Source of the DNA: a virus | IMG/VR virus record: IMGVR_UViG_3300037307_000289 | Length of the DNA: 64,000 nucleotides | Direction: 5' to 3' (one strand) | Shown: piece by piece, positions 16,225-39,342 of the stretch | How positions within the stretch are numbered: the first letter of the stretch is position 1 | Layout: every line of letters begins with the position of its first letter | The notes under the pieces: generated by a model | Told to the model about the DNA's origin: nothing | Seen by the model: only the letters and a program-made list of their open reading frames with translations | The model's database searches: none | Position numbers and translations under genes: made by a program

Positions 16225-16225
16225 A

Positions 16226-19500: not shown

Positions 19501-19838
19501 CTATTCTCCTTTTGAAAACATTCATAACATTTAAATATTTGTTCTAAATTTTCCTCTTTGCCTTCCAATTTTTTTTCAATATAATAATCTTCGCATGAGC
19601 TACAAACCAATAGAATATAACTTTCTCCATCAATCATAAATCTTCCGTTAGAATATTTTAAGTTTTGTATTGTATCCCAACATAGTCTTACTTCTTTTCT
19701 ATACTTTCCTCTGTTAGTACATGTTGGAGAAAAAGCAGAATTATATGAAGTACAACTATTCTGTTTTAATTTTGGAGTACTATAAAATTTATCAACTTTG
19801 TAATTATTTTCTAAATTCTTATTCCAGTTAAATGCCAT
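19497..19838 (-). CDS. zinc-ribbon protein (113 aa) with MAFNW N-terminus
   Basis: CSSC...CYEC pairs. The N-terminus MAFNW resembles MAFTW/MSFSW of the repeat proteins. Confidence 0.45.
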   Translation of the reverse strand: MAFNWNKNLENNYKVDKFYSTPKLKQNSCTSYNSAFSPTCTNRGKYRKEVRLCWDTIQNLKYSNGRFMIDGESYILLVCSSCEDYYIEKKLEGKEENLEQIFKCYECFQKENR

Positions 19839-21500: not shown

Positions 21501-22665
21501 TACAAATCCCCTTTTCTAAAAACTTATCATAATTATTTTCATAGAAAAACTCTTCAAATATTCCACAGTTATAATATAGTTTAAAAAATGACTTATACAT
21601 TTTCAATACTTCATCATTCAACTGCCTTTGTTTATCACTCAATCTATAAATATAATATGTTTTTCCATATTTGCTAGTATGCGGAATAGTTTCATCTTCT
21701 TTACTATGTGCAAATAACCAATGATTCAAACATGAAATTTTATCTTTATACTTTTCTAACTTTGAAAGAAAATATTCTATTGACTTAACATCATCTTTTA
21801 TTAAATTATTCCATCCATGTATTACTGTAATCTTAACGTGACATTTTCTTTCTATAAAATATTTCATAACTTCTATAGCTGAATCTACATCTATTCCTTT
21901 ATTCATTATATCATACATTCTGTTAGATGGGAATTCTATTCCTATAATTGGTCTAAATCTATCATGTGGAATTCCTTTTTCATTTAATGCTTTTAGGATC
22001 TCCCTATCTCCTCGTATAAAAAAAGTATAGTAAGATTCTTTCTTTAAATTCTGAAATAGTGTTAAAATATCTCTTGGTGTTACAGAAAGTTTGTTTAACC
22101 AAATAGTATTTCTGTTTGGTTTTATTATTGGTATTTGATCTGCATCCACATCTGCATCAATACCATAATCCCTATTGCAAAATTTACACTTTCCCCAGTA
22201 ACATTTATTTCCATATGATAGAGAATAGTTGTAATATATCTCTAACTTATCAATATCTCTTAAATTTGGCAAAACTAAATTCCATGTTTTTTCGCTAGGT
22301 TTTATTCCTAATATTTCAAACATATTTCTTTTATCTGAAGTAAAGTTTTCAGAATCAACATGGAAATCTAAATAGTTAACAGCTGGGCCTCCAACTATAA
22401 ATTTAACATTTTTATTTTCTTTTATTAATGTTTCTACATACTTAAACTCTGTATCAAAACCACAAGAAATATATACAGTTCCTTCAACACTAGGATAAAA
22501 TTTATTAGTTGGGTCAATCCAAAGCATTTTTCCTTTATTTTTAATTACATTCCAAACAGATGAAAACCCATTTTTTAGAAATAAGACTCCATCTTCTATT
22601 TTGTAAAATTGAATATAAGTTTCCATTATTTCTTCTCTGATTCGCCTAGATGATTTTTTCTCCAC
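21493..22665 (-). CDS. Cys-cluster enzyme with a Cx4Cx2C motif, possibly a radical SAM variant (390 aa)
   Basis: GNKCYWGKCKFCN with an aromatic before the last Cys, as in radical SAM loops. Paralog of the next gene, sharing the E(F/Y)PS(N/D)(R/K)M(Y/L)..MNKG block. Confidence 0.45.
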   Translation of the reverse strand: MEKKSSRRIREEIMETYIQFYKIEDGVLFLKNGFSSVWNVIKNKGKMLWIDPTNKFYPSVEGTVYISCGFDTEFKYVETLIKENKNVKFIVGGPAVNYLDFHVDSENFTSDKRNMFEILGIKPSEKTWNLVLPNLRDIDKLEIYYNYSLSYGNKCYWGKCKFCNRDYGIDADVDADQIPIIKPNRNTIWLNKLSVTPRDILTLFQNLKKESYYTFFIRGDREILKALNEKGIPHDRFRPIIGIEFPSNRMYDIMNKGIDVDSAIEVMKYFIERKCHVKITVIHGWNNLIKDDVKSIEYFLSKLEKYKDKISCLNHWLFAHSKEDETIPHTSKYGKTYYIYRLSDKQRQLNDEVLKMYKSFFKLYYNCGIFEEFFYENNYDKFLEKGICNV

Positions 22666-23807
22666 TTATCATCTTTTTCTGAAACATCATAAACTTTTAA
22701 AAATGGATATGAATTAATTAGTTTTCTAATTTCACTATTTATAATTTTTTGTTTTTCAGTTTGTTTGGATAAACCAACATAAACATCATAATCTGTCTCA
22801 CATATATCCATATCTTCTAATGTATATTCCTCAGACATTTTTCTATCTGGCATAATAGTAAGAGGATAAACATTAGCAGTAATTGTATTTGGTTTAGAAA
22901 TAAGTGAAATTTTATCTAGAAAATATTTCATGCTATCTAAATCATCATAATCAGTTGGTTTCCACCCTAAGATAAAATTGAAATGTAATCTAATATCGTT
23001 CTGACTACATACTTCAATAAAATTTAAGTAGTCTTTTACAGTTGCCCCTTTATTCATATACTTTAACATTTTATCTGATGGGTATTCTATTCCTAAATTA
23101 AAAGCTAGATACTTAGGATCGACTTTCAATAATGGTAATATTTCTTTTAATGCTTTAGTAGAATAATTATCTCCTCTTATATATGTTGCATAAACAACAT
23201 CATCTCTTTTTTCAAATTGAGGATATAATTTTTTCATAAAAAATGGAGGCATTGAATAAACATGCAACCAAATAAACTTTTTATGTGGACTGTCGATAAC
23301 TGGAACTGTATAAGTTTCTCTATACTTTAATTTTCCAGTTATTTTACAGTATCTACATTTTCCCCAATAACATCCATATCCATCTACTAATGCAACACTA
23401 TACCCAATTGGCTTTTCAGTTTCAACTACTTCTAGATTCCATTCTGATATTTGCCCATTACATAAAAGATCTTCAGCGTTTAAATTGCTAATATGAAAGT
23501 TTGGTAATTCTTTTCCTAGTTTAATTCCATAATGTAAAACAAGTGGGCCACAAACGTATACTTCAAGATTTGAATATGTTTGTGCCCACTTGTATAATAA
23601 TCTTAAACTCTTAGAATACCAAACTGATGCATAAATAATTCCTTCTGTTGCAACTATAGTTTCTTCTTCAACATTTCTCCAAACCATCTCTCCTTGTTCT
23701 TTTAGTTGGTTCCATACTAACGACAAACCATTATTAAAGTTTACAATTCGATCAGGGCCATAGAGAAAATCTTCTTCTCTATAAAATTGAAGAAAATACT
23801 TTTTCAT
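22626..23807 (-). CDS. paralogous Cx4Cx2C Cys-cluster enzyme (393 aa)
   Basis: GYGCYWGKCRYCK. Shares motif blocks with 21493..22665. Confidence 0.45.
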   Translation of the reverse strand: MKKYFLQFYREEDFLYGPDRIVNFNNGLSLVWNQLKEQGEMVWRNVEEETIVATEGIIYASVWYSKSLRLLYKWAQTYSNLEVYVCGPLVLHYGIKLGKELPNFHISNLNAEDLLCNGQISEWNLEVVETEKPIGYSVALVDGYGCYWGKCRYCKITGKLKYRETYTVPVIDSPHKKFIWLHVYSMPPFFMKKLYPQFEKRDDVVYATYIRGDNYSTKALKEILPLLKVDPKYLAFNLGIEYPSDKMLKYMNKGATVKDYLNFIEVCSQNDIRLHFNFILGWKPTDYDDLDSMKYFLDKISLISKPNTITANVYPLTIMPDRKMSEEYTLEDMDICETDYDVYVGLSKQTEKQKIINSEIRKLINSYPFLKVYDVSEKDDKWRKNHLGESEKK

Positions 23808-24812
23808 TTACATTGCCCACTTTCCAAGTGTTAATCCTGTAAACAAATACATTGAGATAAATCCTAAACATGAAAGTGTTGCTACATATTCAGGCCCCCA
23901 TTTCTCTTTATATAAAGGCCAATAATTTACAGTTGGTATTGCTCCTATTGGTTGAAAGATTGCAACTGCTGCTATAGCATTCCAAGGAAGAATAAACCAA
24001 ATAATAATAAGTTGTAATATACCACAAGCTATTAACATATTTTGATAACCAAATTTCATTCCCAACCATGCATTTGGCCATCTTGATCCAGCTGCTATAA
24101 AACTTAATCCTGCTGTAATATATATTGAAGTTTGTTGACTAAAACCTTGTGCTTTAATAGCAGGGACAAACTGTGTAATTGCATATTGATAACCAGATGA
24201 GAAAAATCCACAGATTGCCATCAAAAACCAGAATCTCCAATCTTTACAGAGCTTCAAAAAGATAGACCATTTCCATCCTTCAATCTTATCATCTGGCATC
24301 ATTATATAAGTAAGGATTCCTGATATACCAAAAACAGTTGCTAGAATAAGTGTTGAAGAAGACCACCCCCATTTTAACAATACAGCACTAAGAAATAATA
24401 AAAAGAATATTGAACCAATATTCTTCGCTGCACCTTGAGGGCATATAGAATAAGCTTCATTCTTATTTATTAATTTCATTGGTCCAGAAAAAGGTATTAC
24501 TTTGATTAATGCCCCAGATAAACCAAATAGTATTCCAAATATATAAGGACTATAATTTAATCCAATAATTCCACCTATACCAAGAATTACTGCCGCCGCC
24601 ATAGCTTTTCTTGAACTAACATTATCAAGCAATGGTCCAATAAAAAACATAGCAGCAGAGAGAGAAATAAAAAAGATTGATAATCCTTGCATAAACCAAG
24701 GAATGACAAGATCAGTTTTAGCTAATGTTGTCATACCATGCTGGATCGCATAGGATCCAAATACGGCTAGAGCTAACGGAAACCACATCCACTTTAATGA
24801 CGAACTACCCAT
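23808..24812 (-). CDS. polytopic membrane protein, MFS-transporter-like (334 aa)
   Basis: At least 9 hydrophobic helices. GPLLDNVSSRKAM resembles MFS motif A (GxLaDrxGrkxxl). Confidence 0.55.
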   Translation of the reverse strand: MGSSSLKWMWFPLALAVFGSYAIQHGMTTLAKTDLVIPWFMQGLSIFFISLSAAMFFIGPLLDNVSSRKAMAAAVILGIGGIIGLNYSPYIFGILFGLSGALIKVIPFSGPMKLINKNEAYSICPQGAAKNIGSIFFLLFLSAVLLKWGWSSSTLILATVFGISGILTYIMMPDDKIEGWKWSIFLKLCKDWRFWFLMAICGFFSSGYQYAITQFVPAIKAQGFSQQTSIYITAGLSFIAAGSRWPNAWLGMKFGYQNMLIACGILQLIIIWFILPWNAIAAVAIFQPIGAIPTVNYWPLYKEKWGPEYVATLSCLGFISMYLFTGLTLGKWAM

Positions 24813-24857: not shown

Positions 24858-26144
24858 TTATTTTACTTTTACCCAATGTCTACCATTAACAGCAACTTGA
24901 TTATTTGGACCCCAAAATTCAGCTGTCTCGGGTTTCTTATAAACTCCTACAATTCGTTCAGGGTATAGAGCTTTTTCTTGATCAGTCATTTTAACTAAGC
25001 TACCATCTGCATCGTTGGTCAATACATCACCAGAAACACATGATGTTGCATCATTAACATAAGCTAAAACCCAACCGCAAACTGCAATAGAGACTTGGGT
25101 TTTATTAGAGTCTTGACCAACACCATAACCAAATGTGTCAGAAGCTATTCCAATAACTGATTTTTGACATCTTTCACTACAAATGTAAGCTCCCTGAAGT
25201 GTATCATAATAACATTTTCCCGCGATAAATTCTGGATCAGCTAAATCTTGAAAATCAGCTATGTCGTTCCATATTGCATTGTAAACTCTAGTTGCATAGA
25301 AGTAACCATCATAATTTAGTCTAGAAGTATTTGTTGGGTCAGTAGATCCTGAATAAAGATATCCAGCAGCTTTATATTCATTATTAATATTTAATGAAGC
25401 ATAACATATAATTGTATCATCAGGATTAATTCTTAATCTTTCATTAGAAACCCCGGAAGCATCGTTAGTCCAAAATCTAATTCTACCAGGTGTTATTCCA
25501 GTACTTACTGTTCCTACCACTTCAGCTAAAATTCTTGCTGCTTGGCTATTGTATGTAGAACCATCATCACAATTCCATACAATACTTCCAATATTATCTG
25601 AATTTGTTAAAGCAGAAAAGCTTTCTGGCGCTGTACTTCTACTTTTTAAGAATCTAAAATATGATTCATTGCCGTCATTACTAAATCTGCCTAGTAACAT
25701 ACTGCTAGCAGAATATGTAGTCCCTAACACCTGAAATATGTAATTGGATCCACCTATTATTAAACCTTCGTCAATATTATAATTAGTTAATCTTCCTAGA
25801 GGAGTCATTTTCCATCTAATAGCATTATCTGTTTTAAATTCAATTTTTCCGCCGGTTACATCTATTACTTCTATGCTTGAATCTCCTTGATATATTTTAT
25901 TTGTTGAAAAGTCACCTATACTAGTATCGACATAACTCTTAACTGCTTTTTCAGTTGGTAATGCAGTATCTGAATTTCCTGCTAAAGTAGTATCAGTAGA
26001 AAATTCATTTATATTTGTTAATGTAGCGTCTAATTGTAAAGAATTAAATAAACCTTTTCTAGTAGCGTCCAAGACCGTGGATGATCCATGAACGATTGTT
26101 TGAGAAGAAGTTAGAACGAGATTTCCGTTTCTAAACTTTGCCAT
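24858..26144 (-). CDS. tail-fiber-like protein (428 aa) carrying one copy of the shared fiber module
   Basis: INEFSTDTTLAGNSDTALPTEKAVKSYVDTSI..KIYQGDSSIEVIDVTG. A GGAGGAAT RBS precedes the ATG. Confidence 0.6.
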   Translation of the reverse strand: MAKFRNGNLVLTSSQTIVHGSSTVLDATRKGLFNSLQLDATLTNINEFSTDTTLAGNSDTALPTEKAVKSYVDTSIGDFSTNKIYQGDSSIEVIDVTGGKIEFKTDNAIRWKMTPLGRLTNYNIDEGLIIGGSNYIFQVLGTTYSASSMLLGRFSNDGNESYFRFLKSRSTAPESFSALTNSDNIGSIVWNCDDGSTYNSQAARILAEVVGTVSTGITPGRIRFWTNDASGVSNERLRINPDDTIICYASLNINNEYKAAGYLYSGSTDPTNTSRLNYDGYFYATRVYNAIWNDIADFQDLADPEFIAGKCYYDTLQGAYICSERCQKSVIGIASDTFGYGVGQDSNKTQVSIAVCGWVLAYVNDATSCVSGDVLTNDADGSLVKMTDQEKALYPERIVGVYKKPETAEFWGPNNQVAVNGRHWVKVK

Positions 26145-26233
26145 GATGGGATTCCTCCGTCAACCTGACCACCTATCTATTGGGAGATAGGACGAGGTGA
26201 AAATATTTATTATTTGTTCTAAAAAATATAATG

Positions 26234-26462
26234 TTATGGCGTTGGAATTGGTAAGTCCAACATTCTTTCAGCAGCAGATTTAATCTTTGCATCTAATACT
26301 ACTTGTTCAACATTAACAGGAATATGTGTAGTGTTTGGATCAGATTTCATTCTTGCTATTTCCATTAAGTGCTTCGGAGTTAGATGCCATAAGATTTTCG
26401 CCATCTTTTACTATAACTTCCGAGGCCTCTAAATAAAGATTGCCATCTTTAATATATGCCAT
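26234..26462 (-). CDS. two overlapping mini-ORFs (40 aa MAYIKDGNLYLEASEV.. and 38 aa MKSDPNTTHIPVNVEQ..), possibly one frameshifted small gene
   Basis: Manual translation. ATG/TGA overlap ATGAAATCTGA. Below the ORF-track size cutoff. Confidence 0.2.
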
Positions 26463-26464: not shown

Positions 26465-26839
26465 TTAAATCCCCGCTTTAATTATTACTTGAGGCTTAGT
26501 TGGCCACACTGGTTTTTCTGGGTCAGTTGTATTCTTAGGTAAATCTCTCAATGCTTTTCTGTACATTGTTATATCAATTTGTTCTTGTTCGTTATATCTT
26601 GAAAAGACATCTGGAAGTACCATAAAATCAGTTCTATTTAATATTACATCTCTTTCCAATCTTAATTTTTCATATGCTTTGTCTTTTAGTTCTTGTTCAG
26701 TGAATTCTGGATCAGGAACGTTTCCATTTGATAACCATTCTTTGTATGCAATCCAATCATAATTTGCATCATCATTTGGAATAAAACATGTAGTTTCAGT
26801 ATTCTGAACTCCAGATGAAGTTATTTTATATTTTGCCAT
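26465..26839 (-). CDS. tail fiber assembly (Tfa-like) chaperone (124 aa)
   Basis: C-terminal MYRKALRDLPKNTTDPEKPVWPTKP matches the Tfa motif W..YR..L..VD.......WP..P (lambda Tfa sequence recalled from memory). Sits directly downstream of a fiber gene. Confidence 0.5.
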   Translation of the reverse strand: MAKYKITSSGVQNTETTCFIPNDDANYDWIAYKEWLSNGNVPDPEFTEQELKDKAYEKLRLERDVILNRTDFMVLPDVFSRYNEQEQIDITMYRKALRDLPKNTTDPEKPVWPTKPQVIIKAGI

Positions 26840-26850
26840 TTTTAAACTCC

Positions 26851-27918
26851 TTATGAAATCTCACATGATGCAGTCCAGTTACATACCATACTCAAGGTAG
26901 CTGCTACATTTACTGTTCCATACCAATAGAATCCTGTTGTACTAACAGTTGGTGTTCCAGCATTATAATCTGTATTATTTGTCCAACTACGAACTTTTCC
27001 TGCTGCACCAGTATCAGTAGAATATATAGTAACTGTGGGGGTATAACATTTTTCAACTGCAAATTTAACGTCTGCTCCACCTGTTCCTATTGTTGAAGCT
27101 CCTCCAACACTAAGATATTCTAAAGCACAACCATTTGATGTTATAGTACCTGGTGCTGTAAACATATTATAACTTTTTTCGTAATATCGTTTACACAAGT
27201 TCCCTTCTTTATTTAAAGTTCTTAATTCAAACGGGGTTGGTTGTGAACCAACTTCTAATTGAACACCTATCATATAAAATGCATTATTTATTGCTGACAA
27301 TAGATTTGCTTGATTTGGTCCATAATAATAATTACCTGAAAGCCAAGTATTAAATGTAGAAGTTAGTGCGTTACCCGGAGCTACATCCCAGCATATATTT
27401 ACACCACGATCATTAGTTGACCCAAATGTTACACCAGATGAAGGAAATGTTATTGGAATTACAACATAAGTCCATACAGAATTAGGCATTGTATAAGGAA
27501 CAACATACGAATAGTTACTACTTGTCCCTCTAAATGCAACATAATAAGTTCCGGGATTATTAGTCCATGCCCAAAAACTTAAAACACAACTTTTTCCTTT
27601 TATATAATTAAAGTCATATCCTTCAACAGAATATAATATTGCTACCCATTGAGCTGTGCCTGTAGCAGAGCAATAAACTTGTAATGGAGAATGAATAAAT
27701 GGGGCATCTGCTGGTGGTGTACCTGTTTGTCTATATCCAACTGTTCCAGTCAAAGACCCAGTTTCTAAACTGAATCTATCAGGCAAGAAGTTTGATGTAG
27801 TTCCAGTTATTCCAGAAAGTGTAGTTCCTCTTTGCCATATTTGCATCGCGCCGTTTATAATTAGGTTTCTTCTATAAGGATTTTGTAAAACAGTATTTTG
27901 TATTTTTGTTAAAGACAT
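26851..27918 (-). CDS. tail-fiber tip / receptor-binding paralog 1 (355 aa)
   Basis: Family blocks: MSLTKIQN..NLIINGAMQIWQRGT, GVQLEVGS.PT.FE and L.LCKRYYEKSY. Confidence 0.6.
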   Translation of the reverse strand: MSLTKIQNTVLQNPYRRNLIINGAMQIWQRGTTLSGITGTTSNFLPDRFSLETGSLTGTVGYRQTGTPPADAPFIHSPLQVYCSATGTAQWVAILYSVEGYDFNYIKGKSCVLSFWAWTNNPGTYYVAFRGTSSNYSYVVPYTMPNSVWTYVVIPITFPSSGVTFGSTNDRGVNICWDVAPGNALTSTFNTWLSGNYYYGPNQANLLSAINNAFYMIGVQLEVGSQPTPFELRTLNKEGNLCKRYYEKSYNMFTAPGTITSNGCALEYLSVGGASTIGTGGADVKFAVEKCYTPTVTIYSTDTGAAGKVRSWTNNTDYNAGTPTVSTTGFYWYGTVNVAATLSMVCNWTASCEIS

Positions 27919-27920
27919 AT

Positions 27921-29003
27921 TTATGCCTCTCCAAGTTCACATCTTGCAGTCCATTGAGTACCAAAACTATGTCCAGCTATAGCTGTATGAGGAGCTGCCC
28001 AATAAAACCCTTTAGTATTAGGATTAGAAGATGTTACTGTATGGTCTGTTGAGTTACTCCATAAATATGCTTTACCAGATGTTCCTGTAGCAGGGGAATA
28101 ATATGTAATTCCTGGTGTTGCTCTTTTTTCTACTCTGAAATTTTGATAAGATCCAAATGCTGCTACACTTGATGCTGCATCTACTCCTAAATAATCCCAT
28201 ATCATTCCAGGAACTTCATTAGAGGCACCTGGTATTGCTCCTAACTGATAGCTTTTTTCATAATACCTCTGACACAATCTTAATTCTTCTTCTTGACTTT
28301 TAAATTCAAAATCTGTAGCTTTATCTCCTATTTCTAATTGAACTCCTGTTAAATAATAACCAGCACCATTAGTAGCTGCTGCATTTACAATATTTGATGG
28401 AGCTGAAACATTGCCTGTAGTCCATTGATTTAAATTGCTTGTATAATATGTAGACCCACAAGCTAAAATCCAGTAAATAACTAACCCAACTCCATTAGTT
28501 GTATCAAATGTACCACCAGGAGAATTAAATATTATAGGTATTTCTACTTTTGTCCATGTTCCAGAAGGTAAAAGGTATGGAGCAACATAACTATAAGTTG
28601 ACATATTATCTTTAAAAACTACTGCATAAGTACCAGATATAGTAGTCCAACACCAAAAACTTAGTACACATTGCTGATTTTTTAAATAGTTATAATCATA
28701 TCCTTCAACATAATATCCTATTAAAATCCATTGCCCTGCCCCAACAGATGAATCAGCAGTTGGAAAAAGACAAGCCAATGGAGTAGTAAATCCTGTTGGA
28801 GGAGTTCCTGACTTATTGTATGTAATTACTGCATCAGTATTTTCACTAATAAAAAATCTATCTGCCAAATATTTAGTTCCAGAATTTCCTGTTATTCCTG
28901 TTAATGAAGTTCCACGCTGCCAAATTTTCATATCTCCATTAATAATGAAGTTCTTTTTTGAAGCATACTGAATTAATTTATTATTAATTTTAGTTAAACT
29001 CAT
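27921..29003 (-). CDS. tail-fiber tip paralog 2 (about 360 aa). The start is placed at the internal MSLTKINN; the track ORF extends to 29090.
   Basis: The N-terminus MSLTKINNKLIQ..NFIINGDMKIWQRGTS aligns with the other paralog starts. The 29-aa upstream extension overlaps paralog 3. Confidence 0.6.
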   Translation of the reverse strand: MSLTKINNKLIQYASKKNFIINGDMKIWQRGTSLTGITGNSGTKYLADRFFISENTDAVITYNKSGTPPTGFTTPLACLFPTADSSVGAGQWILIGYYVEGYDYNYLKNQQCVLSFWCWTTISGTYAVVFKDNMSTYSYVAPYLLPSGTWTKVEIPIIFNSPGGTFDTTNGVGLVIYWILACGSTYYTSNLNQWTTGNVSAPSNIVNAAATNGAGYYLTGVQLEIGDKATDFEFKSQEEELRLCQRYYEKSYQLGAIPGASNEVPGMIWDYLGVDAASSVAAFGSYQNFRVEKRATPGITYYSPATGTSGKAYLWSNSTDHTVTSSNPNTKGFYWAAPHTAIAGHSFGTQWTARCELGEA

Positions 29004-30088
29004 CAGTATCCTCCAATCTCTGCATTTGCAACCCACTGAACTGCGCAACTTCTTGTTGCTGTAGCTGTATAAGCACTTGCTGAATACCAATAAAAACCAC
29101 TAGGAATAGGAACTACAGTTGCTGAATATGAAGATCCTATCCCAAAATTATGATATGTGCCAGATGCCCCAGTATGGGGAGAATAAACTGTTACAGTTGG
29201 AGTTGCTCTTTTTTCAGTGTTAAATCTAACATTTTGGCCAGCATAACTTGTGGTACCACCAGTTAAAACATGGTATCTCCAACTCATTCCTCCATATAAA
29301 GGATATGTTCCCGGAACAGTTTCTAATGGATAACTTTTTTCATAATATCTTTGGCATAAAGAAATTTCTTCCGCTTTACTTCTAAACTCATAATCTGTTG
29401 CTGAATCTCCAACTTCTAATTGAACTCCAGTTATATAAAAATCATTTCCTATTGTATCAGCAAAATTAACTTGATTAGGAGGGCAAGTTTTATTTCCAGC
29501 TATCCAAACATTTGGATTACCACCTAAAAGATTTGATCCTCCTGCTAAAATTATAGCAAAGATACATCCAATTCCATTTCCTGAATCAAATGTACCACCA
29601 GGTGAATTAAATGTTACTGGAGCTATAACTTTAGTCCATGTAGATGATGGTAATGTAAACGGAATCATATAAGTATATGTATATGCGTTATCTCTAAATG
29701 AAGCTCCATAAGATCCAGGTTTATTAGTCCATGCCCAAAAACTTAAAGTACATCTTTTTCCTTTTATAAAGTTAAAATCATATCCTTCAATATAGTATAT
29801 TATTGCAACCCATTGATCTGAAGTTAAAGATGTATCAGCAGTAGCTATATAAAATTGATTTGAATATAAAAACCCTTGTCCAGTAGGAACTCCTGTACTT
29901 CTACCGCTAGTTAATGAACCATCAAACGCAGTAGAAGAAATCCATCTATCAGCAATAATATAAGCTGTGGATCCAGTTTGCCCTGTATAACTAGTTCTTC
30001 TTTGATATATTTCCATATTTCCATTAATGAAAATATTCTTTCGATATGGAGATTGTATAAGATTTTTATGAACAGTAGTTAAAGACAT
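29003..30088 (-). CDS. tail-fiber tip paralog 3 (361 aa)
   Basis: MSLTTVHKNLIQ..IFINGNMEIYQRRTS; GVQLEVGDSATDYEF; LCQRYYEKSY. Confidence 0.6.
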   Translation of the reverse strand: MSLTTVHKNLIQSPYRKNIFINGNMEIYQRRTSYTGQTGSTAYIIADRWISSTAFDGSLTSGRSTGVPTGQGFLYSNQFYIATADTSLTSDQWVAIIYYIEGYDFNFIKGKRCTLSFWAWTNKPGSYGASFRDNAYTYTYMIPFTLPSSTWTKVIAPVTFNSPGGTFDSGNGIGCIFAIILAGGSNLLGGNPNVWIAGNKTCPPNQVNFADTIGNDFYITGVQLEVGDSATDYEFRSKAEEISLCQRYYEKSYPLETVPGTYPLYGGMSWRYHVLTGGTTSYAGQNVRFNTEKRATPTVTVYSPHTGASGTYHNFGIGSSYSATVVPIPSGFYWYSASAYTATATRSCAVQWVANAEIGGY

Positions 30089-30090
30089 TT

Positions 30091-31647
30091 TTATAACTCC
30101 GAATCAACTGTCCAATTAAATTCATATAATTCATTAGAAACACCATTTGAAGATAACTGTATATAAGATGCTACTCTATTAGTTGTTGTTTCTGAAACAG
30201 ATGTTACTGCAATTTTAGTAGCTGGATTATTATAAAGCCCAACATAATTTGAACTACCATCTTGTGACCAAACTAATACGGTAGTTGGTGTAACTCTTTT
30301 TGTTACTTTAAAATCGTAACCACTAGTTCCAAATAATCTTGTTAAAACTGTACTTGGAATAATTCCATGCGCTCCACCAGCTGCACTCCCAGGAGCTGTT
30401 CCATAATCGTAGCTTTTTTCATAAAATCTTAGGCATAATTGAAGTTCTTCACCAAATGATCTTTGTTCAAACTTTGTTGCAACAGATCCAACTTCTAATT
30501 GTACTCTTGATAAATCAAAAGTCCCAACCCAACTTGATACAGAATTTCCCGGTAAGAAACGAATATACATATAATTATTAGTACCAATAGTCATTCCAGA
30601 TATAGAAGCTATATTAAAAGTTATTGTGATCTTTTGCCAAGATGTAGTTAATGTAAATGACCCAATTGAAACATTAGTAGCTGTTGAGCCTCCAGATCCA
30701 AAATTTTGACCATATGTCATAGCAAGAGTAGTAGTTAGACTTGCTTTAGCATAAAAAGATAAAGTTGCTGTTTGCCCAGCTAAGCTTCTAACATTTTCAA
30801 CTCTATGTTCTAATAAAAGATAATCTCCTGTTCCAGTTTTATTAATACTCATATAAAATTCTGGTTCTCCTGGAACACTAGTTTGACCAGGCGTAAATGA
30901 TGTTCTAGTTACAGTTCCTGTTGTAGCAGTTCCGCCTCTCCATCTATCAGCATTATAAACGTTAGTAAGATTTGATATTGATGTTCCTCTTTGCCAAATA
31001 TTAAAATCACCATTAATTATATAGTTTTTTCTTCCAGATATTTCAACAAATGTATCTGCATGATAACCATCTAAAGTATCTGCATTTGTTAATGGAATAT
31101 CGTCAGTATTTGGACTTACAAATAAGAGTTTTGTTCCAACTGGTAATTCTTCATCAAATGTTACAGTTGTTCCTGAAATTGAATATGCTTCAGATAATTG
31201 TCTAACTCCATCAATATAAATTGAAATCATTCCTTCGTCTGGTGTAAATGGCAATGTTACATCATCAGTAGCTTCAGTTAATGTAGTTTCATAAGTATTA
31301 GTATTCCATTCATGATTACTTACATTATATGAACCATAGATTGCAAATTCAACAATATCTGTAGCTTGTAATGAAGCGCCAAATGTAATAGTTTTTGAGT
31401 TTGTTTCCACATATTGAGTTGAGTTAGCTGGGCTACTTGTAACTCTTTCAGCTTTTTGCCCATTAATATATACTACTAATGTATTAGAACCAGGAACATA
31501 TGACCCTGACAATGTAAACACTGTATATGAACTGGCACCTTGTGAACCAGTTTGCTTTTCATATAAACGAACTGAGGACACTCCGCCAATATCAGCTTGA
31601 GTTTTAGTCTTAGTTAAAAATTTACCATTTCTTGAAATAGCTGGCAT
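30091..31647 (-). CDS. tail-fiber tip paralog 4 with 170-aa N-terminal extension (518 aa)
   Basis: NYIINGDFNIWQRGTS; RVQLEVGSVATKFE; LCLRFYEKSY. Confidence 0.6.
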   Translation of the reverse strand: MPAISRNGKFLTKTKTQADIGGVSSVRLYEKQTGSQGASSYTVFTLSGSYVPGSNTLVVYINGQKAERVTSSPANSTQYVETNSKTITFGASLQATDIVEFAIYGSYNVSNHEWNTNTYETTLTEATDDVTLPFTPDEGMISIYIDGVRQLSEAYSISGTTVTFDEELPVGTKLLFVSPNTDDIPLTNADTLDGYHADTFVEISGRKNYIINGDFNIWQRGTSISNLTNVYNADRWRGGTATTGTVTRTSFTPGQTSVPGEPEFYMSINKTGTGDYLLLEHRVENVRSLAGQTATLSFYAKASLTTTLAMTYGQNFGSGGSTATNVSIGSFTLTTSWQKITITFNIASISGMTIGTNNYMYIRFLPGNSVSSWVGTFDLSRVQLEVGSVATKFEQRSFGEELQLCLRFYEKSYDYGTAPGSAAGGAHGIIPSTVLTRLFGTSGYDFKVTKRVTPTTVLVWSQDGSSNYVGLYNNPATKIAVTSVSETTTNRVASYIQLSSNGVSNELYEFNWTVDSEL

Positions 31648-31696
31648 TAAATCAGTCCTCCTTTATAGTTCTGCACTAAATAAAACATAACCACCA

Positions 31697-32728
31697 TCAC
31701 CTCTTATTAATATATGGTTTAGCAGCAGTTAAACCTGTAAAATTGCCCAAAATTAACTTACACCCATAAGAACTAGCATATTGTAAATTTGCAGCTGCTG
31801 CACTTTGTGTATAACCAGTTACTGCTGGGTCCTCTATTTTCATAGCAGCAGAAGCGGTTACAGTAGATGGTGTAGTTCTCATTGAAGGAGAAAAAGAGAT
31901 AGCAAATTCAGCAGAAGTAGTTGACGAAGCAGAACCACTTCCTCCTTGAATAATTTGACAATATCTTTTAGCTAAATTTAATTCCTCAGAAATATGTCTC
32001 ATTTCAAAATCAGTTGCTATAGACCCAACTTCTAACTGTACCCCGTTTAGTCTTACTTCATTATTTATACTATCAAGACCATTAACTTGATTATTTGATG
32101 CAATATAATTTCCATTTAACCATGTATCTAATGTTGATGTACTATAAGTTCCTCCAGATGGAGCTGCAATAGTCCACCAAATTGAAAATCCTTCATTGTA
32201 TGTAGTTTCCCAGGTTCCAGAAGAAAGGCTAGAGTACATTGGAATTGTAATAATTTTCTTTTCCCAGGCGTTAGATTGATTAATTACATATTCAGAAACA
32301 TACGATCTATCTGGAGTGGCATTTCTAATTGAAAGTGAATATATTCCAGTTTTATAAGCTCTTATCCAGAAAGATAGAGTAATATATGTATTTGCATATA
32401 ATGCTCTTGCATCATATCCTTCAACTGAATAACCAATAGCTGAGTACTGACTAGATGATAAAGATGTATCTGCGGTGGTTACTATAAAATATAATGAATC
32501 TGTAAAATAATGGCCTGATTCAGATACTGTTGGGACTGATTGTGATTGAGTGTAACGAAGCACACCATCTGAAAAATTAGAAACGTAGAATCTATCAGCT
32601 AAATAAGTTCTAGAACCGCTACTAGTTATATTTAAACGATCTGTTCCTCGTTGCCACAAACGGAAATCCCCATTTATTATATAGTTTCTTCTTCCAATAC
32701 CTATATTTGAGTTACTTAAAAGCGCCAT
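31697..32728 (-). CDS. tail-fiber tip paralog 5 (343 aa)
   Basis: NYIINGDFRLWQRGTD; GVQLEVGSIATDFE; LAKRYCQ. Confidence 0.55.
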   Translation of the reverse strand: MALLSNSNIGIGRRNYIINGDFRLWQRGTDRLNITSSGSRTYLADRFYVSNFSDGVLRYTQSQSVPTVSESGHYFTDSLYFIVTTADTSLSSSQYSAIGYSVEGYDARALYANTYITLSFWIRAYKTGIYSLSIRNATPDRSYVSEYVINQSNAWEKKIITIPMYSSLSSGTWETTYNEGFSIWWTIAAPSGGTYSTSTLDTWLNGNYIASNNQVNGLDSINNEVRLNGVQLEVGSIATDFEMRHISEELNLAKRYCQIIQGGSGSASSTTSAEFAISFSPSMRTTPSTVTASAAMKIEDPAVTGYTQSAAAANLQYASSYGCKLILGNFTGLTAAKPYINKR

Positions 32729-32743
32729 ACTTTTATCTCCAAA

Positions 32744-33835
32744 CTATATTTCTGCATTAGCAGTCCATTGAAAAGCAAAAACATCGCTTATACTTGCAGT
32801 AGCAGAATATGCATTAAAACCATATTCTGAACTACTACCTGTTGTTGCTGCTTGATCGGTACCAGTATTTAAATTTCTAACATTTCCAGAAGCGCCTGTT
32901 GCTGTACTATAAATTGTTAGTACAGCTGTATTTGGTTTTTGTACTTTATAAGCTAAATAACCTACTCCTGCTCCGTTTCCTCTAATTCCAATTACTGATC
33001 CAGCACTAGAAATAGACCCTGGAGCTGTTTCTAAAGCATAAGATTTTTCATAATATCTTTGGCATAAAGCTAATTCAGTTTGATATAATCTAGATTCAAA
33101 ATCTGTAGCTACTGGTCCTAATTCAAACTGAATATTTTTCAAAAAGAAATTATTATTTGTACTGCTAAAGAAATTAACTTGACTACTAGTTGCATATTTT
33201 GCACTAGAGCTCTCCCAAATATTAGGATTACTTGTTTGAAAATCAGTACCACATAGTAAAGTCCATCTAATATTTAAACCAGTTGTATCTGGGGCATAAG
33301 TCCATGTTCCAGATAAACCATCATGCATAGTAAATGTAATTGTTTTATATTCCCATGTGTCTGATTGATTGATTGTATAAGTGGCAACATAATTTCTATC
33401 CGCTCCAGAATTATTCATTGCTATACAAAAAGTACCAGTTTGATAAGCTCTAACCCAAAATGAAAGAGTACAAACTTTTCCCATTATATGCCTAATATCA
33501 ACTCCTTCTATTCTATATCTTAATGTAACTTGTTCTCCTGATGAAGTTGAAGCATCTGCTGTAGTACAATTAATTCTAAAAGCATATGGAGTAAAAATAT
33601 TAGAGGGACTAGATGTAGCTCTTGTTATTGAAGCTACGCCTGCTGTAGCAGCCCCAACACTAAGAGCAAATCTATCTGGTCCAAAAATAGTGGTGCTTGG
33701 GCCTATTCCTGTCTGTGATACACCAGCAGTTCTTTGCCAGATATCAAATGCCCCATTTATTATAAGATTCTTTCTAGCATATGGAATACTACTACCAAGC
33801 ATTGATTGTACTTGTTCCGAATATTTAGTTGCCAT
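32744..33835 (-). CDS. tail-fiber tip paralog 6 (363 aa)
   Basis: NLIINGAFDIWQRT; IQFELGPVATDFE; LCQRYYEKSY. Confidence 0.6.
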   Translation of the reverse strand: MATKYSEQVQSMLGSSIPYARKNLIINGAFDIWQRTAGVSQTGIGPSTTIFGPDRFALSVGAATAGVASITRATSSPSNIFTPYAFRINCTTADASTSSGEQVTLRYRIEGVDIRHIMGKVCTLSFWVRAYQTGTFCIAMNNSGADRNYVATYTINQSDTWEYKTITFTMHDGLSGTWTYAPDTTGLNIRWTLLCGTDFQTSNPNIWESSSAKYATSSQVNFFSSTNNNFFLKNIQFELGPVATDFESRLYQTELALCQRYYEKSYALETAPGSISSAGSVIGIRGNGAGVGYLAYKVQKPNTAVLTIYSTATGASGNVRNLNTGTDQAATTGSSSEYGFNAYSATASISDVFAFQWTANAEI

Positions 33836-33847
33836 TACTAATCCTCT

Positions 33848-34999
33848 TTATGTGTAAAGTTCTGAGTCAGCTACCCAATGAAAGGATATTTTATTACCAG
33901 TTGTTTGTGCAGAAGCTAATAGTAGTCTAGAAAATCCACCTCTTGCTATATAACCTGTAGAACCTCCAACTATTGGATACGTTATATTTACATCTACCCC
34001 AGTATTTAAATTTCTACAATAAATAGATCCAGGAATTCTAGACCAAAGTCTTTCAGTGTTTGGTGAAAAAGAATATAAAGTAGGTATGGCTCGTTTTGTA
34101 ACTACAAAGGCATAATCCCCCTCTATTTCAGTTGTTGATGGAATTCTACATATTTTCGCTCCAACATCAGTTATTGTCCCTATTGTAATTTCTGGACTAT
34201 AACTTTTTTCAAAATATCTTTGACAAGCAGCTAATTCTTGATCTATAGTTCTTCCCATTCCTATTGTTGGCCCTATTCCAGGCTCAAATTTAATATTAGC
34301 AAAATAAATATTTCTTCCTGAACTACCAAATAGATCACCTTGAGTCATATGCGCACTATAATAATTACCACTATACCATGTATTAATTGAGTCAGCTGGG
34401 ATTCTGCCATCACCGCCACATCTTAATATGAAATATATTCGCAAACCTACTTCTCTATCTCTTCTCCATGCGCCACTATCAGTCATTTGAAGTGTTATAG
34501 TTTTATATTCCCAAGTATTTTCTTCTTCTATTTCATAAGGTGTAATATAACATAAATCATTTGCATAATTTTTTAATGCAACAAAATATTTACCTGGATT
34601 ACTAGATTTTACAAAAAATGAAAGAGTGCATTTTTTTCCAATTAATGTAGTAGAATTGTGCCCTTCTATTTTTTGACCTATATAATATAATGCTGGGTCT
34701 GTTCCTCCAGAAACAGTAGTTGAAGTAATTTTTATACTATACTGTGACTCATAGTTATAATTTGGAGGAATATCTGAACTTCTTTCAATTGTTGCATAAC
34801 TAACATTTGGATTTGGTTCTATAAAGCTTTGATAATAAAACCATCTATCAGCAGTATAAAACCCTGTAACTCCATCAAATCCAAAATTAGAAGAATTAAA
34901 AGTAGTGTTTCGCTGCCAAAAATTAAAATACCCATTCAATAAAAAGTTAGGCCTTACAATATCTTGACTTGAAACCATTTCTAAATTATATATTTTCAT
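33848..34999 (-). CDS. tail-fiber tip paralog 7, most divergent (383 aa)
   Basis: NFLLNGYFNFWQRNT; IKFEPGIGPT; ACQRYFEKSY. Confidence 0.55.
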   Translation of the reverse strand: MKIYNLEMVSSQDIVRPNFLLNGYFNFWQRNTTFNSSNFGFDGVTGFYTADRWFYYQSFIEPNPNVSYATIERSSDIPPNYNYESQYSIKITSTTVSGGTDPALYYIGQKIEGHNSTTLIGKKCTLSFFVKSSNPGKYFVALKNYANDLCYITPYEIEEENTWEYKTITLQMTDSGAWRRDREVGLRIYFILRCGGDGRIPADSINTWYSGNYYSAHMTQGDLFGSSGRNIYFANIKFEPGIGPTIGMGRTIDQELAACQRYFEKSYSPEITIGTITDVGAKICRIPSTTEIEGDYAFVVTKRAIPTLYSFSPNTERLWSRIPGSIYCRNLNTGVDVNITYPIVGGSTGYIARGGFSRLLLASAQTTGNKISFHWVADSELYT

Positions 35000-35014: not shown

Positions 35015-38000
35015 TTATGATATAACTCTCCATCCTGTTGTTGAATCAACATATACAAGAGTCACATCTGCACGATCTTCATCTAATACATAATCATCTT
35101 CAATCTCTTCAATTTTATTACCATTTCTTCCCAGTGTACAATTATTTGTACCAAAGTTAACTGATGCATCAACAATCTTAATTTCATCACCAGTAGTTGG
35201 AGAACCAGGTAGAGTAATAGTAATTGCCCCACCAGATGTTTTAACTAATAGTTTGTCTCCATCCTGCGCTGAATAGTTCGAAGTTATTGTTGACCATCTT
35301 GTTACTGCAGCAGGTTGTGTAGAATCAGGATTATATAGAACTCCCCAATTTCTAAAGTCATCAGCTCCGCCTGCTGTCACTCTTAATCTTAAATCTAAAC
35401 CAGTATTTGTAAAGTAATGAATTTCATTGATAGTTACAGTTTCCCAATTAGTTCCATCAGCAGTCATTTCAAATGTATGACCAGCTGTTGTATCGCTATA
35501 ATCTACATATAGAATAGCTTGTGTAACAGCTGCCATTCCTGCATTTGAGTCATATAGATCATTTGATTCTAATATTTCTCCAACTGACGATGCTGAATAC
35601 ATATGGTTTGCAACTGAATGAGTCATAGTTGTTTCACCAGTATTAACATCATCAGTAGTTCTAAATGTATCAAAACCAGCGTTTAAATAAATTGAATTGT
35701 CTAATAATCTTTCATAGAATTGTGCCTCTAGATTTGTATCAATATAAATCTTTGTTGCACGTTCAGTTGGAACGGCTGCGTTTGAATTATCAGCTAATGC
35801 AGAATCGCTAGAAAATTCATTAACTCTTTGCCCTGATGCTAAAGCAAGACCATCACTATTTATAGTTGCTTCAACTGATCCATCAATTGTGCATGTTACT
35901 GTACCATTTGAACCTGTATCAGTAACTTCAACAGTTGAATCTCCTGCTATAATTAGATTTTGTGGACCTCCAACTGTTGAACCATCTACATTAACCCAAG
36001 TAGCTGTAGTTGCATCATATTGAATAATATCTAGGTTTTGAACTCCAGTAATATTAACATCTCCCAAATCTGCTAATAGATCAGGAGAAGTTCCTGAAGT
36101 ACCGCTTGAACCTGAACTACCTGATGTACCTGATGAACCACTAGTACCAGATGTTCCGCTAGTTCCTGAACTACCCGAAGTTCCACTTGAACCTGAAGTT
36201 CCAGATGAACCACTTGTACCTGCATCACCAGTTGGCCCCTGTTCTCCTGAAGTTCCAGATGAACCACTAGTTCCTGAACTACCAGATGTACCTGATGAAC
36301 CACTTGTACCTGAACTACCAGATGTACCTGAGCTTCCTGATGTTCCACTAGTACCTGAACTACCTGACGTACCAGATGTTCCACTTGACCCTGAACTTCC
36401 AGATGAACCAGATGTGCCTGAGCTACCAGAAGTTCCTGATGAACCAGATGTACCAGATGTGCCTGAGCTACCTGATGTGCCTGATGTGCCTGAGCTACCT
36501 GATGTACCTGATGAACCACTAGTACCTGAGCTACCTGATGTTCCTGAGCTACCTGATGTACCAGATGTTCCAGCTAATGATGATGAAGCAGATACTCTAC
36601 TTGTTACTAGACCTCTCCAGTCTATGTATGAATTTTCAGAATCTCCAGATGCTGAAACCATTTTAACATTACTATAAGTATCCCATCCATCATTTGTTTG
36701 ATAAATAAATGTTGCAATTGGTGTAAATTCTGCAGATGGTAAACCCAATGTGTAAATACTATCAATTTCTTCAATAGCTGCATCTCTTGCTGCTGTTCTT
36801 GTTGAATATTCATTTTGTCCCTGAATAGCAATAAAAGGCATACTAGGATCAGGAATAGCAAAGACGTGTGCTAGTACAAAATAGTTATTTGCTGAAACTT
36901 GAGTTTGACTTCCTGAACTACTTGTAATTTGGTTATAATTAACTCTTTGTCCAGTAGTTCCATAAGTCATTAAGAATGATTCTGGTCTCTTTCTCCAATC
37001 TGATCCATCTAAATAAAATAGTGGAATTTCTGCTGCATCAAATGGAGAGCTAACCCCTTGTTGTGGTATAGTATGCAAAATATCTTCATCAAAGAACGAA
37101 CCTTCCTGAATAATGAATTGATTTTGTCTATCTGAAGTAGGTGGGTCATCATTATTACTATCCTCAGTTGCAAGATCTAATACGGCCATACCCGAACCAT
37201 ATCTAGATCCAAATGTTGAGTGTAAATAATAATGTGTCGCCCAGTCCATGGTTACACCATGGCGTTCGTCAGCTTTAATTATCCATATATTACTTGAACT
37301 ATCCCAATAACCATTGGCAACAAATGCATAATTTTTTAATAAGTTTAAACTAAACGTATTAACAGCATTAATATTTTCATCATTATCAAGATAGAAGAAC
37401 CACATTCCTTCAGTTGGAGGACTTGAGAATGTATAAGTTTTAGTTCCTACTTCGTGTTCAACACCTTTAATTAGATATGTAAATGTTGATCCTGTTGGTT
37501 GAATTGACAAACTTTGTGAAGTAGCATCATCCCAAACCAAAGTAGATTCTGTTCTATCAAAGATACCAGTTGGTTCAAATGTGAATGTTCCAAGATAGTT
37601 CATAACTTCTTGAAGAGTTGTACTTGTTCCTGAACTACCTGAAGTACCAGATGATCCGCTTGTACCACTTGAGCCTGAAGTTCCTGAACTACCCGAGGTT
37701 CCGCTTGATCCACTAGTTCCTGATGAACCACTAGTTCCAGATGAACCTGAACTGCCAGATGTACCTGATGTACCACTTGATCCACTAGTTCCTGATGAAC
37801 CACTTGTTCCTGAACTACCTGATGTTCCAGATGATCCTGATGTGCCGCTAGAACCTGATGTACCTGATGTACCACTAGTTCCTGATGTACCACTAGAACC
37901 TGATGATCCTGAGGAACCACTAGAACCTGATGAACCGCTAGTACCTGATGAACCGCTAGTACCTGAACTACCTGAAGTTCCAGATGTTCCGCTTGATCCT

Positions 38001-39262
38001 GATGAACCAGATGTACCAGATGAACCGGAACTGCCTGACGTACCAGATGTTCCTGAACTTCCTGATGTTCCTGAACTGCCCGATGTTCCAGAAGTTCCAT
38101 TGCTACCTGATCTTGCAAAGTCGAAATAGAAATATTGATCGTCTGTTGCATTATCACCAGCAACAACATTAGTTACAGAAACTTTCCAATAACCAGATTC
38201 ATCACTAACTGCTGTTACTGTAAATATACCATATATACTTGTTGAGATATTTCTGCGAATTGTTAATGTACCCTTATTAGGATTTAAAGGGTCATCCCAA
38301 CTTGAAATCCAATTTGATATATCATCATCACCTTGTGTGAGATCGTCTATATAAAGTTCTGTAACAGATCCCCATGAGGCATTATTCATCCTGAAATAAC
38401 CATCTCCAGGATCAGCCTCTGCGGTTACATTATCAAATCTATAAAACGCACCAGCTGCAATTGGATTACCTGATGTACCAGAACTTCCACTTGAACCACT
38501 TGAGCCTGAGGTTCCTGAGCTTCCACTTGTACCTGATGTTCCAGAAGTACCACTTATTCCATTAGTTCCAGAAGTACCACTAGTTCCAGAAGTACCTGAT
38601 GCTTCAGCATTAGCTTCAGCTATAATCCATTCAAATTTATAATTTTGTGAGTCGGTTTCTCCTGTTAGTAGAACAGTAAAACTAGTTTCGTCTCTAGCTA
38701 TAACTGTCCATGCATAAATTGAAGGAGTAGCGTCAACACTATTAGTTATACTACCTGAAACTTTATATGTTGAAGTTCCTTGACTTTCAGAAAAGATTAC
38801 TATAAATGATGATGAATCATCCGGAATACTAAATATTCCAGCTGTAACCCCTTCTCCTGATGTACCACTAGTTCCGCTAGAACCTGAACTACCTGATGTT
38901 CCACTTGATCCACTTGTTCCACTTGATCCACTTGTTCCAGATGACCCTACATGATTATCAACGTAAAATTTAACTGCTTTTTCAGTTGGAACAGCTAAAT
39001 CAGAATCTCCTGATAATGTTCCATCTGTAGAAAATTCATTAACACCTGTACCATTTTTTAAACTAGTAACCCCTGTATCTGTAATTGAAAATACGGAAAC
39101 ATTTGATGTATCGGTAACCTTGAATCCATCTTCATCTTGCATTTGTAGTGAATCAAGAATAATCTTCTTATCATCACCAACATTCCAGTCACCGGTTAGG
39201 GTATTGGTTCCATCTCGTTTTACAACAAGATCTTTTCGTATCCATTTAGGATCAAATGTCAT
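35015..39262 (-). CDS. giant tail fiber with collagen-like (G-T/S-S)n triplet tracts (1415 aa)
   Basis: Three long [13 protein letters not shown].. tracts. Two copies of the shared module ([29 protein letters not shown]; [29 protein letters not shown]). Confidence 0.75.
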
Positions 39263-39282: not shown

Positions 39283-39342
39283 ATTAAAAAAAAAATAGTT
39301 GAAAAACTGTGGAGAAGCTCCAAACTTCGAAGCTTCTCCACA
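39283..39342 (-). terminator. rho-independent terminator on the minus strand: perfect 12-bp stem (tgtggagaagct/agcttctccaca), 11-nt loop, then a T-rich tract
   Basis: In minus orientation the hairpin is followed by GTTTTTCAACTATTTTTTTTTTT. Lies just past the stop of the 2337-aa fiber gene. Confidence 0.65.

Follow-up and report, generated by a model that had tools for sequence, protein, structure and literature searches.

Seven tandem tail-fibre tip paralogues and a fibre chaperone form a putative multivalent host-recognition cassette in an IMG/VR virus

The IMG/VR virus record IMGVR_UViG_3300037307_000289, analysed here over a stretch of 64,000 nucleotides (the window), carries at 26465–34999 on the minus strand a cassette of eight tightly packed genes: seven paralogous tail-fibre tip genes (26851–34999), numbered p1 to p7 in their reading order, and a gene for a tail fibre assembly (Tfa)-type chaperone. 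The explanation that we favour, with moderate confidence, is that the cassette encodes a co-expressed, multivalent set of glycan-binding tips carried on a complex fibre apparatus, with two conserved sequence boxes as the sites at which modules are swapped during evolution; our confidence goes no higher because incorporation into the virion, docking and ligands are all things that we infer. The genes are listed below in reading order, copies without a fibre shaft being termed anchorless and E standing for the expectation value of the match to the protein family phrog_4492.

33848–34999, minus strand: p1, 383 amino acids (aa), anchorless tip paralogue with a class-E leader; E 8e-38
32744–33835, minus strand: p2, 363 aa, anchorless tip paralogue with a class-B leader
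31697–32728, minus strand: p3, 343 aa, class-C leader, short divergent C-terminal subdomain, 3′ frameshift; E 1e-45
31663–31696, minus strand: out-of-frame remnant of the p3 3′ end, corresponding to the final 11 codons of the intact allele, from alignment with loci L001 and L005
30091–31647, minus strand: p4, 518 aa, an N-terminal module (aa 1 to about 200, about 31050–31647) followed by a tip; E 2e-64, residues 65–518
29003–30088, minus strand: p5, 361 aa, anchorless tip with a class-A leader (MSLTTVHKNLIQSPYRK); E 1.5e-48
27921–29003, minus strand: p6, 360 aa, anchorless tip with a class-A leader; E 1e-48
26851–27918, minus strand: p7, 355 aa, anchorless tip with a class-A leader; E 2e-47
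26465–26839, minus strand: Tfa chaperone, 124 aa, an N-terminal module of about 45 aa and a C-terminal Phage_tail_APC domain

The packing of these genes is tight throughout. Gaps between successive tip genes from p1 to p7 are 12, 15, 49, 2, −1 and 2 nucleotides (nt), the true start of p6 being the ATG at 29003, which overlaps the p5 stop by that one nucleotide, rather than an upstream TTG, and the chaperone starts 11 nt past the p7 stop, an arrangement found again in a sister lineage (L101). Every start codon in the cassette is preceded by a Shine–Dalgarno (SD)-like motif (GGAG or AGAGG), and the opposite plus strand has no open reading frame (ORF) of at least 80 aa. A gene for a collagen-like fibre protein lies directly upstream; in the sister lineages the end of this gene and the beginning of the first tip gene share 8–11 nt. 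The sole terminator-like hairpin between fibre genes is at 39310–39322, and neither promoter-like nor terminator-like sites were enriched over shuffled sequence. The seven tips, the chaperone and the collagen-like fibre gene are probably one translationally coupled unit. Five samples independently yielded assemblies of the same DNA; a megablast search with the cassette as query in 50,697 phage records gave no match. Rfam and transfer RNA scans of the whole window also gave no matches, and tandem repeats in the window are confined to the collagen-like gene.

The initial annotation of this DNA, made from its letters alone, had described seven consecutive paralogues sharing three motif blocks. 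These are real, with exceptions within the blocks in p1, p3 and p4. In the alignment of the seven (A1), N-x3-N-G...Q-R is invariant, 20 columns are invariant in all and the RKNxIINGxFxIWQRGT block is present; GVQLEVG..ATDFE occurs in six of the seven, p1 carrying NIKFEPGIGPTIG instead; and LCQRYYEKSY is exact in p2, p5, p6 and p7 and nearly so in p1 and p4, the counterpart in p3 being LAKRYCQIIQ. A hidden Markov model (HMM) of the family finds exactly seven members within the window, at E 1e-95 to 1e-130 for six copies and in two pieces (1e-32 and 1e-37) for p4, and all seven match phrog_4492 (‘tail fiber protein’, 1096 positions) over positions ~783–1096 at E 8e-38 to 2e-64. Such E-values mark the likeness of the paralogues as homology rather than chance. 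The proposal that these are tail-fibre tips is likewise well supported, given the C-terminal matches to phrog_4492, the setting among fibre genes and a predicted fold like that of a carbohydrate-binding module (CBM).

More than 3000 homologues were returned by a database search with p2. Anchorless forms are common in the family, with 46 of the 120 top matches (roughly 40%) having lengths of ~340–372 aa; many others span 450–630 aa, some with PF03906 (the T7 tail-fibre N-terminus) or PF12571 (a tail-collar fibre domain) ahead of the domain. The arrangement in which a phrog_4492-type domain ends a longer fibre protein holds only for p4 here, the other six copies starting 13–22 aa before the domain. 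Among isolates, tblastn (all matches below 40% identity) picked out proteins annotated as tail fibres in HMO-2011, T7-like and T4-like cyanophages, pelagiphages and Methylophilales phages, as well as in Stenotrophomonas, Ralstonia, Acidovorax and Pseudomonas putida phages.

The fold of the tips was predicted from p2, for which an AlphaFold2 model built from 72 sequences reached a mean predicted local distance difference test score (pLDDT) of 91.7 and a predicted template-modelling score of 0.88. The model has a floppy leader (residues 1–20), a beta-jelly-roll of CBM4 type (~20–245), a helix formed by LCQRYYEKS and a second beta-sandwich (262–360). This predicted two-domain fold matches tail fibres of phages phiAp1, P-TIM68, S-H34, S-B28 in BFVD (TMq 0.75–0.87), and many podo-, sipho- and myoviruses have tail fibres ending in the same two-domain tip. 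The model supports a carbohydrate-binding-module-like fold for the tips, which may bind glycans.

The leaders of the six copies without a fibre shaft, 13–22 aa ahead of the domain, fall into recurrent classes.

Class A, MSLTK..N..LQ.PYRK: p5, p6 and p7
Class B, MATKYSEQVQ...: p2
Class C, MALLSNSNIG...: p3
Class D, MANKFTDFNPG...: sister lineage only
Class E, MKIYNLEMVSS...: p1

These classes are seen again in the sister lineages and in unrelated metagenomic proteins, and the leaders are conserved independently of the tip body. Among 111 anchorless members, 190 pairs have a leader identity of at least 60%, and in 92 of these the bodies are less than 50% identical (down to 28%), the pairs not being phylogenetically independent; background pairs with body identities of 25–50% have a mean leader identity of 24% and reach 60% in only 1.1% of cases. 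Conservation in the orthologues of p5, p6 and p7 is among the highest over the first 20 aa (0.90–0.95). Model confidence in the p2 leader is low (~54), as expected of a leader that is not packed on the domain. Klebsiella phage KP32 offers a precedent: its second receptor-binding protein (RBP2) attaches to the first through a conserved N-terminal peptide of 29 aa (PMC13352976). The leaders described here resemble such docking peptides of branched receptor-binding systems and, by this analogy, may dock the tips.

The remaining copy, p4, carries a different, lineage-specific N-terminus of ~200 aa. Its N-terminal module is 89% identical to that of protein P0004 and 71% to that of P0121, whereas the tips differ (10–30% identity). 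Compared with its L101 counterpart, p4 is 80–100% identical over the first ~200 aa and 10–30% identical directly past the IING..WQRG motif. A word-indexed search of 5.8 billion proteins returned only two relatives of the module, P0004 being missed by that search, and an AlphaFold model from a four-sequence alignment (pLDDT 63) was too poor for a fold search. Conservation of an N-terminus whose neighbouring tips are swapped is what a virion anchor would be expected to show, and we tentatively assign that role to this module. Exchange is also visible in nucleotide sequence, at two repeated DNA boxes.

30963–31036, 27804–27877, 28889–28962, 32623–32696 and 33706–33779, minus strand: IING..WQRG DNA box (repeat family D7), coinciding with the breakpoint between leader or anchor and tip body
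33018–33076, 27149–27207, 28228–28286, 29310–29368, 30389–30447 and 34179–34237, minus strand: CQRYYEKS DNA box (repeat family D5), coinciding with a breakpoint between the two tip subdomains

A block at 31675–30970 that is 87.8% identical to L101 ends at 30970, inside D7, and the 3′ third of the slot-3 gene of L101 is 83% identical to the 3′ third of p2 (33067–32716), this block beginning at the CQRYYEKS box. As the shared blocks end at the D7 and D5 boxes, the boxes coincide with recombination breakpoints, and they separate three modules: leader or anchor, jelly-roll and C-terminal sandwich.

Three sister lineages with common flanks and differing cassette interiors were compared. They retain flanks and leaders and exchange tip bodies at the two conserved boxes. 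The first (L101–L105), seen in four independent samples, has six tips as recovered and no p1. Its order is the collagen-like fibre gene, a 352-aa tip (class-B leader, body 34–37% identical to p2), a 341-aa tip (class C, 35–44% to p3), a 540-aa protein that matches p4 at 89% identity over its first 200 aa and whose tip is 10–30% identical to that of p4 and 51% to p2, orthologues of p5 (75%), p6 (78%, P0124) and p7 (80%), and then Tfa (71%). The other lineages (L087/L092/L093, and L091) have the fibre gene, a p2 orthologue (72.5%) or a class-D tip, single tips of class A and class C in that order, a 303-aa protein joining the p4 N-terminal module (71%) to an unrelated 108-aa end, three tandem C1q-domain proteins, a small ORF, a p1 orthologue (76%) at the far end of the cassette, opposite to its place in the window, and an orthologue of the 428-aa protein that borders our cassette. 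The C1q-domain proteins (186, 183 and 439 aa; L092 8682–11126) take the positions of p5–p7 behind the gene with the p4 anchor and have a common leader, MG[LF]D[LI]NG, the 439-aa one also carrying a Gly_rich_2 domain.

Five copies (p1, p2, p5, p6 and p7) thus have one-to-one orthologues in a sister lineage at 73–80% identity. Against these, ratios of nonsynonymous to synonymous substitution (dN/dS) are 0.21 for p1, 0.24 for p2, 0.27 for p5, 0.26 for p6, 0.20 for p7 and 0.20 for Tfa, and that of a neighbouring radical-SAM gene, given for comparison, is 0.19. Together the low ratios and one-to-one orthologues mark the copies as maintained genes, and a view of them as decaying duplicates is rejected on the same grounds, the 3′ frameshift of p3 being the exception. 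The window and locus L002 have one extra A near 31707 in p3, which changes the conserved end ...IIRGDGGYVLFSAEL to ...INKR and leaves 343 aa, whereas L001 (12140–12172) and L005 (3363–3395) carry an intact 354-aa allele ending in the conserved ...SAEL motif of the family. Without the final strand of the C-terminal sandwich, which the frameshift removes, the p3 of this strain may be impaired. The truncating insertion (window 31697–31710) is also present in SRR12687326.

Pairwise identities among the paralogues are 26–47%, highest for p5/p6 (46.7%), p5/p7 (43.8%) and p6/p7 (42.9%). The second and third copies, counted along the plus strand, had been singled out as the most similar and as a sign of recent duplication; these are p6 and p5, and they are indeed the closest pair. 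A recent origin does not follow: the paralogues are only 26–47% identical, and p5, p6 and p7 each have a sister-lineage orthologue at 75–80%, so that the triplication is older than the split of the lineages. The nearest non-orthologous database relative of p6 (43–44% identical) is no nearer than p5 or p7, which fits an ancient triplication in situ.

The proposal of a Tfa-like chaperone is well founded. Residues 57–117 match PF16778 (Phage_tail_APC) at E 8e-13 and 48.4 bits, above the curated cut-off of 26.6, and the C-terminal half matches phrog_4912 (‘tail fiber assembly’, E 1e-15) and phrog_8716; the N-terminal ~45 aa match phrog_34019. ORFs matching either half adjoin tip genes in ~27 of 80 IMG/VR loci, and in two loci (L080, L050) one such ORF stands behind each of two tip genes. 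The intergenic gaps of our cassette are too small for further chaperones, and a single chaperone may serve several tips.

The fibre genes around the cassette are the following.

35015–39262, minus strand: collagen-like fibre protein, 1415 aa, directly upstream; PF01391 (Collagen) E 5e-53, many ‘tail fiber’ PHROGs
39358–48472 (39358–46371 and 46460–48472), minus strand: two upstream fibre proteins, of 2337 and 670 aa; tail-fibre family phrog_9851 at E 3e-39 and 1.5e-24
24858–26144, minus strand: fibre-like protein, 428 aa, at the downstream border; phrog_18345, phrog_9851 and phrog_9942 (tail fibre)

The 1415-aa collagen-like protein is a candidate scaffold for the tips. Its gene, of G-S/T-S repeats, differs in length between relatives, with 1842 aa in L001 (3293–8821), ~99.6% identical to the window over the adjacent 8.1 kb, and 1313 (L087), 1397 (L101) and more than 1651 aa between lineages, implying a variable fibre length. 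Its C-terminal domain was considered as a general docking partner and rejected, being near anchorless tips in only one of 80 loci. In L087/L092 and L101 the cassette is bordered by orthologues of the 428-aa protein, 80% identical over the C-terminal half and 57% at the N-terminus, respectively. A motif of the type (S/A)D.A(V/L)PTEKAVK.YVD, at about positions 1042–1079 of phrog_9851, is found in all four large fibre proteins, in five stretches in the 2337-aa protein.

Our favoured explanation is as follows. The locus would be the variable host-recognition cassette of a large uncultivated tailed phage, with seven anciently diverged two-domain tips. The N-terminal module of p4 would anchor that protein to the virion, and the six leaders probably dock the other tips onto the fibre scaffold. 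A virion might then display several different glycan-binding heads together, giving multivalent adsorption. Over evolution the tip bodies would recombine at the IING..WQRG and CQRYYEKS boxes while leaders, anchor and flanks persist.

Several observations weigh against this explanation. The tips are presumed virion proteins, the cassette being known from its genes and a predicted fold. Tips elsewhere often have a small chaperone of their own, and here one chaperone accompanies seven tips, of which p3 is frameshifted in this strain. Pfam CBM_4_9 (PF02018) matches p4 at 22.0 and p2 at 15.9 bits, below the gathering threshold of 25.9, with zero matches to the other five copies in the Pfam scan, so that a CBM-like fold is supported and membership of the Pfam family is not; and a profile search of PDB sequences returned nothing at E up to 1, that is, no solved sequence relative. 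Scans with Pfam, PHROGs or both, of limited sensitivity, revealed no branching or docking domain in the neighbouring fibre proteins, and none of T4 gp10-like branching type in the 2337-, 1415-, 670-, 656- and 428-aa proteins or in p4; without a recognizable branching domain the analogy to KP32 is one of function rather than of membership. Finally, there is no capsid or terminase hallmark within the window, so that the phage type is assigned from the fibre module and from accessory genes typical of phages.

Several other explanations have to be weighed, of which the first, although unlikely, survives best. The tips may compete for limited docking sites, each virion carrying a random subset and the burst being a mixed, bet-hedging one. 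Membership of p5, p6 and p7 in one leader class would allow one common site, L087 and L091 have a single class-A gene, and only one chaperone is present. Yet the leaders of p5, p6 and p7 are 88–94% identical to those of their own orthologues, while about half of the leader differs between paralogues, which suggests distinct sites, and tight translational coupling predicts a roughly fixed stoichiometry.

It is doubtful, and a weaker prospect than competition for sites, that p5, p6 and p7 form one heterotrimeric tip aided by the single Tfa, leaving fewer fibres than genes. The three are adjacent, translationally coupled and of one leader class, and they are kept one-to-one across lineages at 75–80% identity under purifying selection, followed by one chaperone. 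There is a parallel in L087/L092, where exactly three tandem C1q-domain genes with a common leader stand behind the p4-anchor gene, and C1q is itself a heterotrimer of three tandem paralogues. However, the phage fibre tips studied so far are, to our knowledge, homotrimers, the domain usually occurs as a single copy or fused to PF03906 and so works as one gene product, and L087 and L091 make do with one class-A gene. A bolder combination, in which the leaders would be a positional address code assigning different CBM-type heads to defined sites of a hyperbranched fibre and p5, p6, p7 and Tfa would make up a heterotrimeric tip, also seems improbable, and we know of no such architecture described for phage fibres.

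That the seven are lectin-like or enzymatic proteins outside the virion, for example soluble glycan binders made during infection, is very unlikely. The fold is indeed that of the carbohydrate-binding modules of glycoside hydrolases, and six copies lack a recognizable fibre shaft; but no catalytic domain was detected and no N-terminal hydrophobic signal sequence was seen in the leaders, the great majority of the homologues are C-terminal ends of proteins annotated as tail fibres, the genes lie inside a fibre module with a fibre chaperone behind them, and the family sits between tail genes M and L–J in a Stenotrophomonas prophage. The initial annotation had left open a switchable cassette, which we do not uphold. 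A switch by inversion, a shufflon or a diversity-generating retroelement, expressing one tip at a time, is in our view extremely improbable: the short conserved boxes common to the copies could in principle support recombination, but all copies are co-oriented complete genes, each with an SD motif and an ATG, inverted repeats are nowhere long (18–30 nt, 73–90% match, no partner geometry), no invertase, integrase/recombinase or reverse transcriptase occurs among the scanned window ORFs of at least 139 aa, and independent assemblies from several samples agree on gene order. With no switching machinery found and a ribosome-binding site for each gene, a co-expressed multivalent set is likelier than a switch, and the multivalent reading, also offered in the initial annotation, is plausible and the likeliest of those considered.

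Beyond the fibre genes, small ORFs occupy ~26233–26461, between the Tfa and 428-aa genes, a region seemingly split into two short ORFs, the distal of which (…MEIARMKSDPNTTHIPVNVEQVVLDAKIKSAAERMLDLPIPTP) has a conserved counterpart in the C-terminus of an 88-aa L092 protein (11151–11417). Directly downstream of the fibre module lies a major facilitator superfamily (MFS) transporter gene (23808–24812; PF07690 E 3e-10), followed by radical-SAM-like genes (22626–23807, 21493–22665, 16226–17584, 13412–14740) with several function-unassigned ORFs between them; L092 keeps the MFS gene (37%) and the adjacent radical-SAM gene (63%). This stretch (13412–24812) may be a modification or peptide-maturation cluster. 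At the strand switch beside the fibre module is a ROS/MucR-type regulator (51431–52042, E 1.6e-7), and the other strand (52082–62670) encodes a NADAR protein, an SPFH/Band-7 protein, a metallophosphatase, a PP2C phosphatase and a protein-kinase-like product. An RtcB gene is also present in the wider window.

Seven tips had been called unusually many, and in part this stands: seven is the largest count in our samples, by a margin of one copy. Among 80 IMG/VR loci (up to 10 kb per side), 63 have one copy, 16 two and one three, and 80 loci from bacteria and metagenome-assembled genomes have one to six copies (in 64, 7, 5, 2, 1 and 1 loci, respectively). The claim goes too far in that arrays of five to six occur elsewhere: six copies within 11 kb in cyanomyovirus S-H34, five in RB11-B, and others in Stenotrophomonas prophages and a sister lineage. 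In Stenotrophomonas maltophilia EA1 (L173 7455–15124, NZ_NEQV01000004.1) six tandem paralogues stand between lambda-like M (a minor tail gene) and L, K/I and J, in a siphovirus-type prophage, an unusual place for tip genes; related arrays of 4–5 copies are found in L163, L147 and L133. Six of the seven copies consist of just a leader and a tip and are packed head-to-tail, which is more distinctive than the count.

What chiefly stands in the way of predicting and engineering phage host range is host recognition, and mechanistic knowledge of phages with several receptor-binding proteins (RBPs) comes almost wholly from Klebsiella and enterobacterial tailspike systems. The locus and its sister lineages offer a natural comparative series for a different, very widespread tip family, found across cyanophages, pelagiphages and soil and plant-associated bacteria, with well-marked module borders and recombination breakpoints that can be seen in the sequence. 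If the leaders are docking peptides, they would provide a simple rule by which the valency of uncultivated phages could be read, and perhaps re-wired, from sequence.

Among known systems, the arrays of S-H34, RB11-B and the Stenotrophomonas prophages (4–6 tandem copies, gpM–gpL) are alike in domain content, the same tip domain family (HMM E 1e-13 to 1e-75) being amplified several-fold in the tail module. Unlike the copies in the window, theirs have N-terminal extensions of 45–200 aa, and those of the cyanophages are interleaved with other genes; the S-H34 paper does not discuss the tip array, as far as could be checked (PMC7472177). Compared with the CBM4, CBM9, CBM16 and CBM22 modules of glycoside hydrolases, the tips are only 9–19% identical in sequence and add a C-terminal beta-sandwich and a phage-fibre setting to the predicted fold, their ligands being putatively glycans.

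The lambda/Mu/P2-type pairs of tip and Tfa (Stf–Tfa, S–U, H–G) are similar in having a PF16778 gene directly downstream of the tip, and mosaic exchange at conserved linker sequences is the classical pattern of tail-fibre genes. Unlike these pairs, the window has seven tips before one chaperone and no invertible segment, and its chaperone has an extra N-terminal phrog_34019 module of ~45 aa, elsewhere a stand-alone ORF beside tips of the same family.

Branched multi-RBP systems have been described in Klebsiella phages KP32 and K11, with an anchor, a branching domain and an N-terminal conserved peptide (PMC13352976), in Ackermannviridae of CBA120 type, with the branched RBPs TSP1–4 (PMC11414711), and in the jumbo phages phiKp24, RaK2 and phiK64-1, with about 10–14 fibres (PMC9700779, PMC10253068). 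As in these systems, the window has tandem genes of RBP type, a conserved N-terminus beside swapped tips in p4 and short independent leaders elsewhere, and specificity modules are exchanged between relatives. In contrast to them, its heads are predicted CBM4-like jelly-rolls with a beta-sandwich rather than beta-helix depolymerase tailspikes, a Tfa closes the array, scans of the neighbours revealed no T4 gp10-like branching domain, and any physical branching is putative. The cassette is a large example of a known multi-RBP host-range strategy, not a new kind of system.

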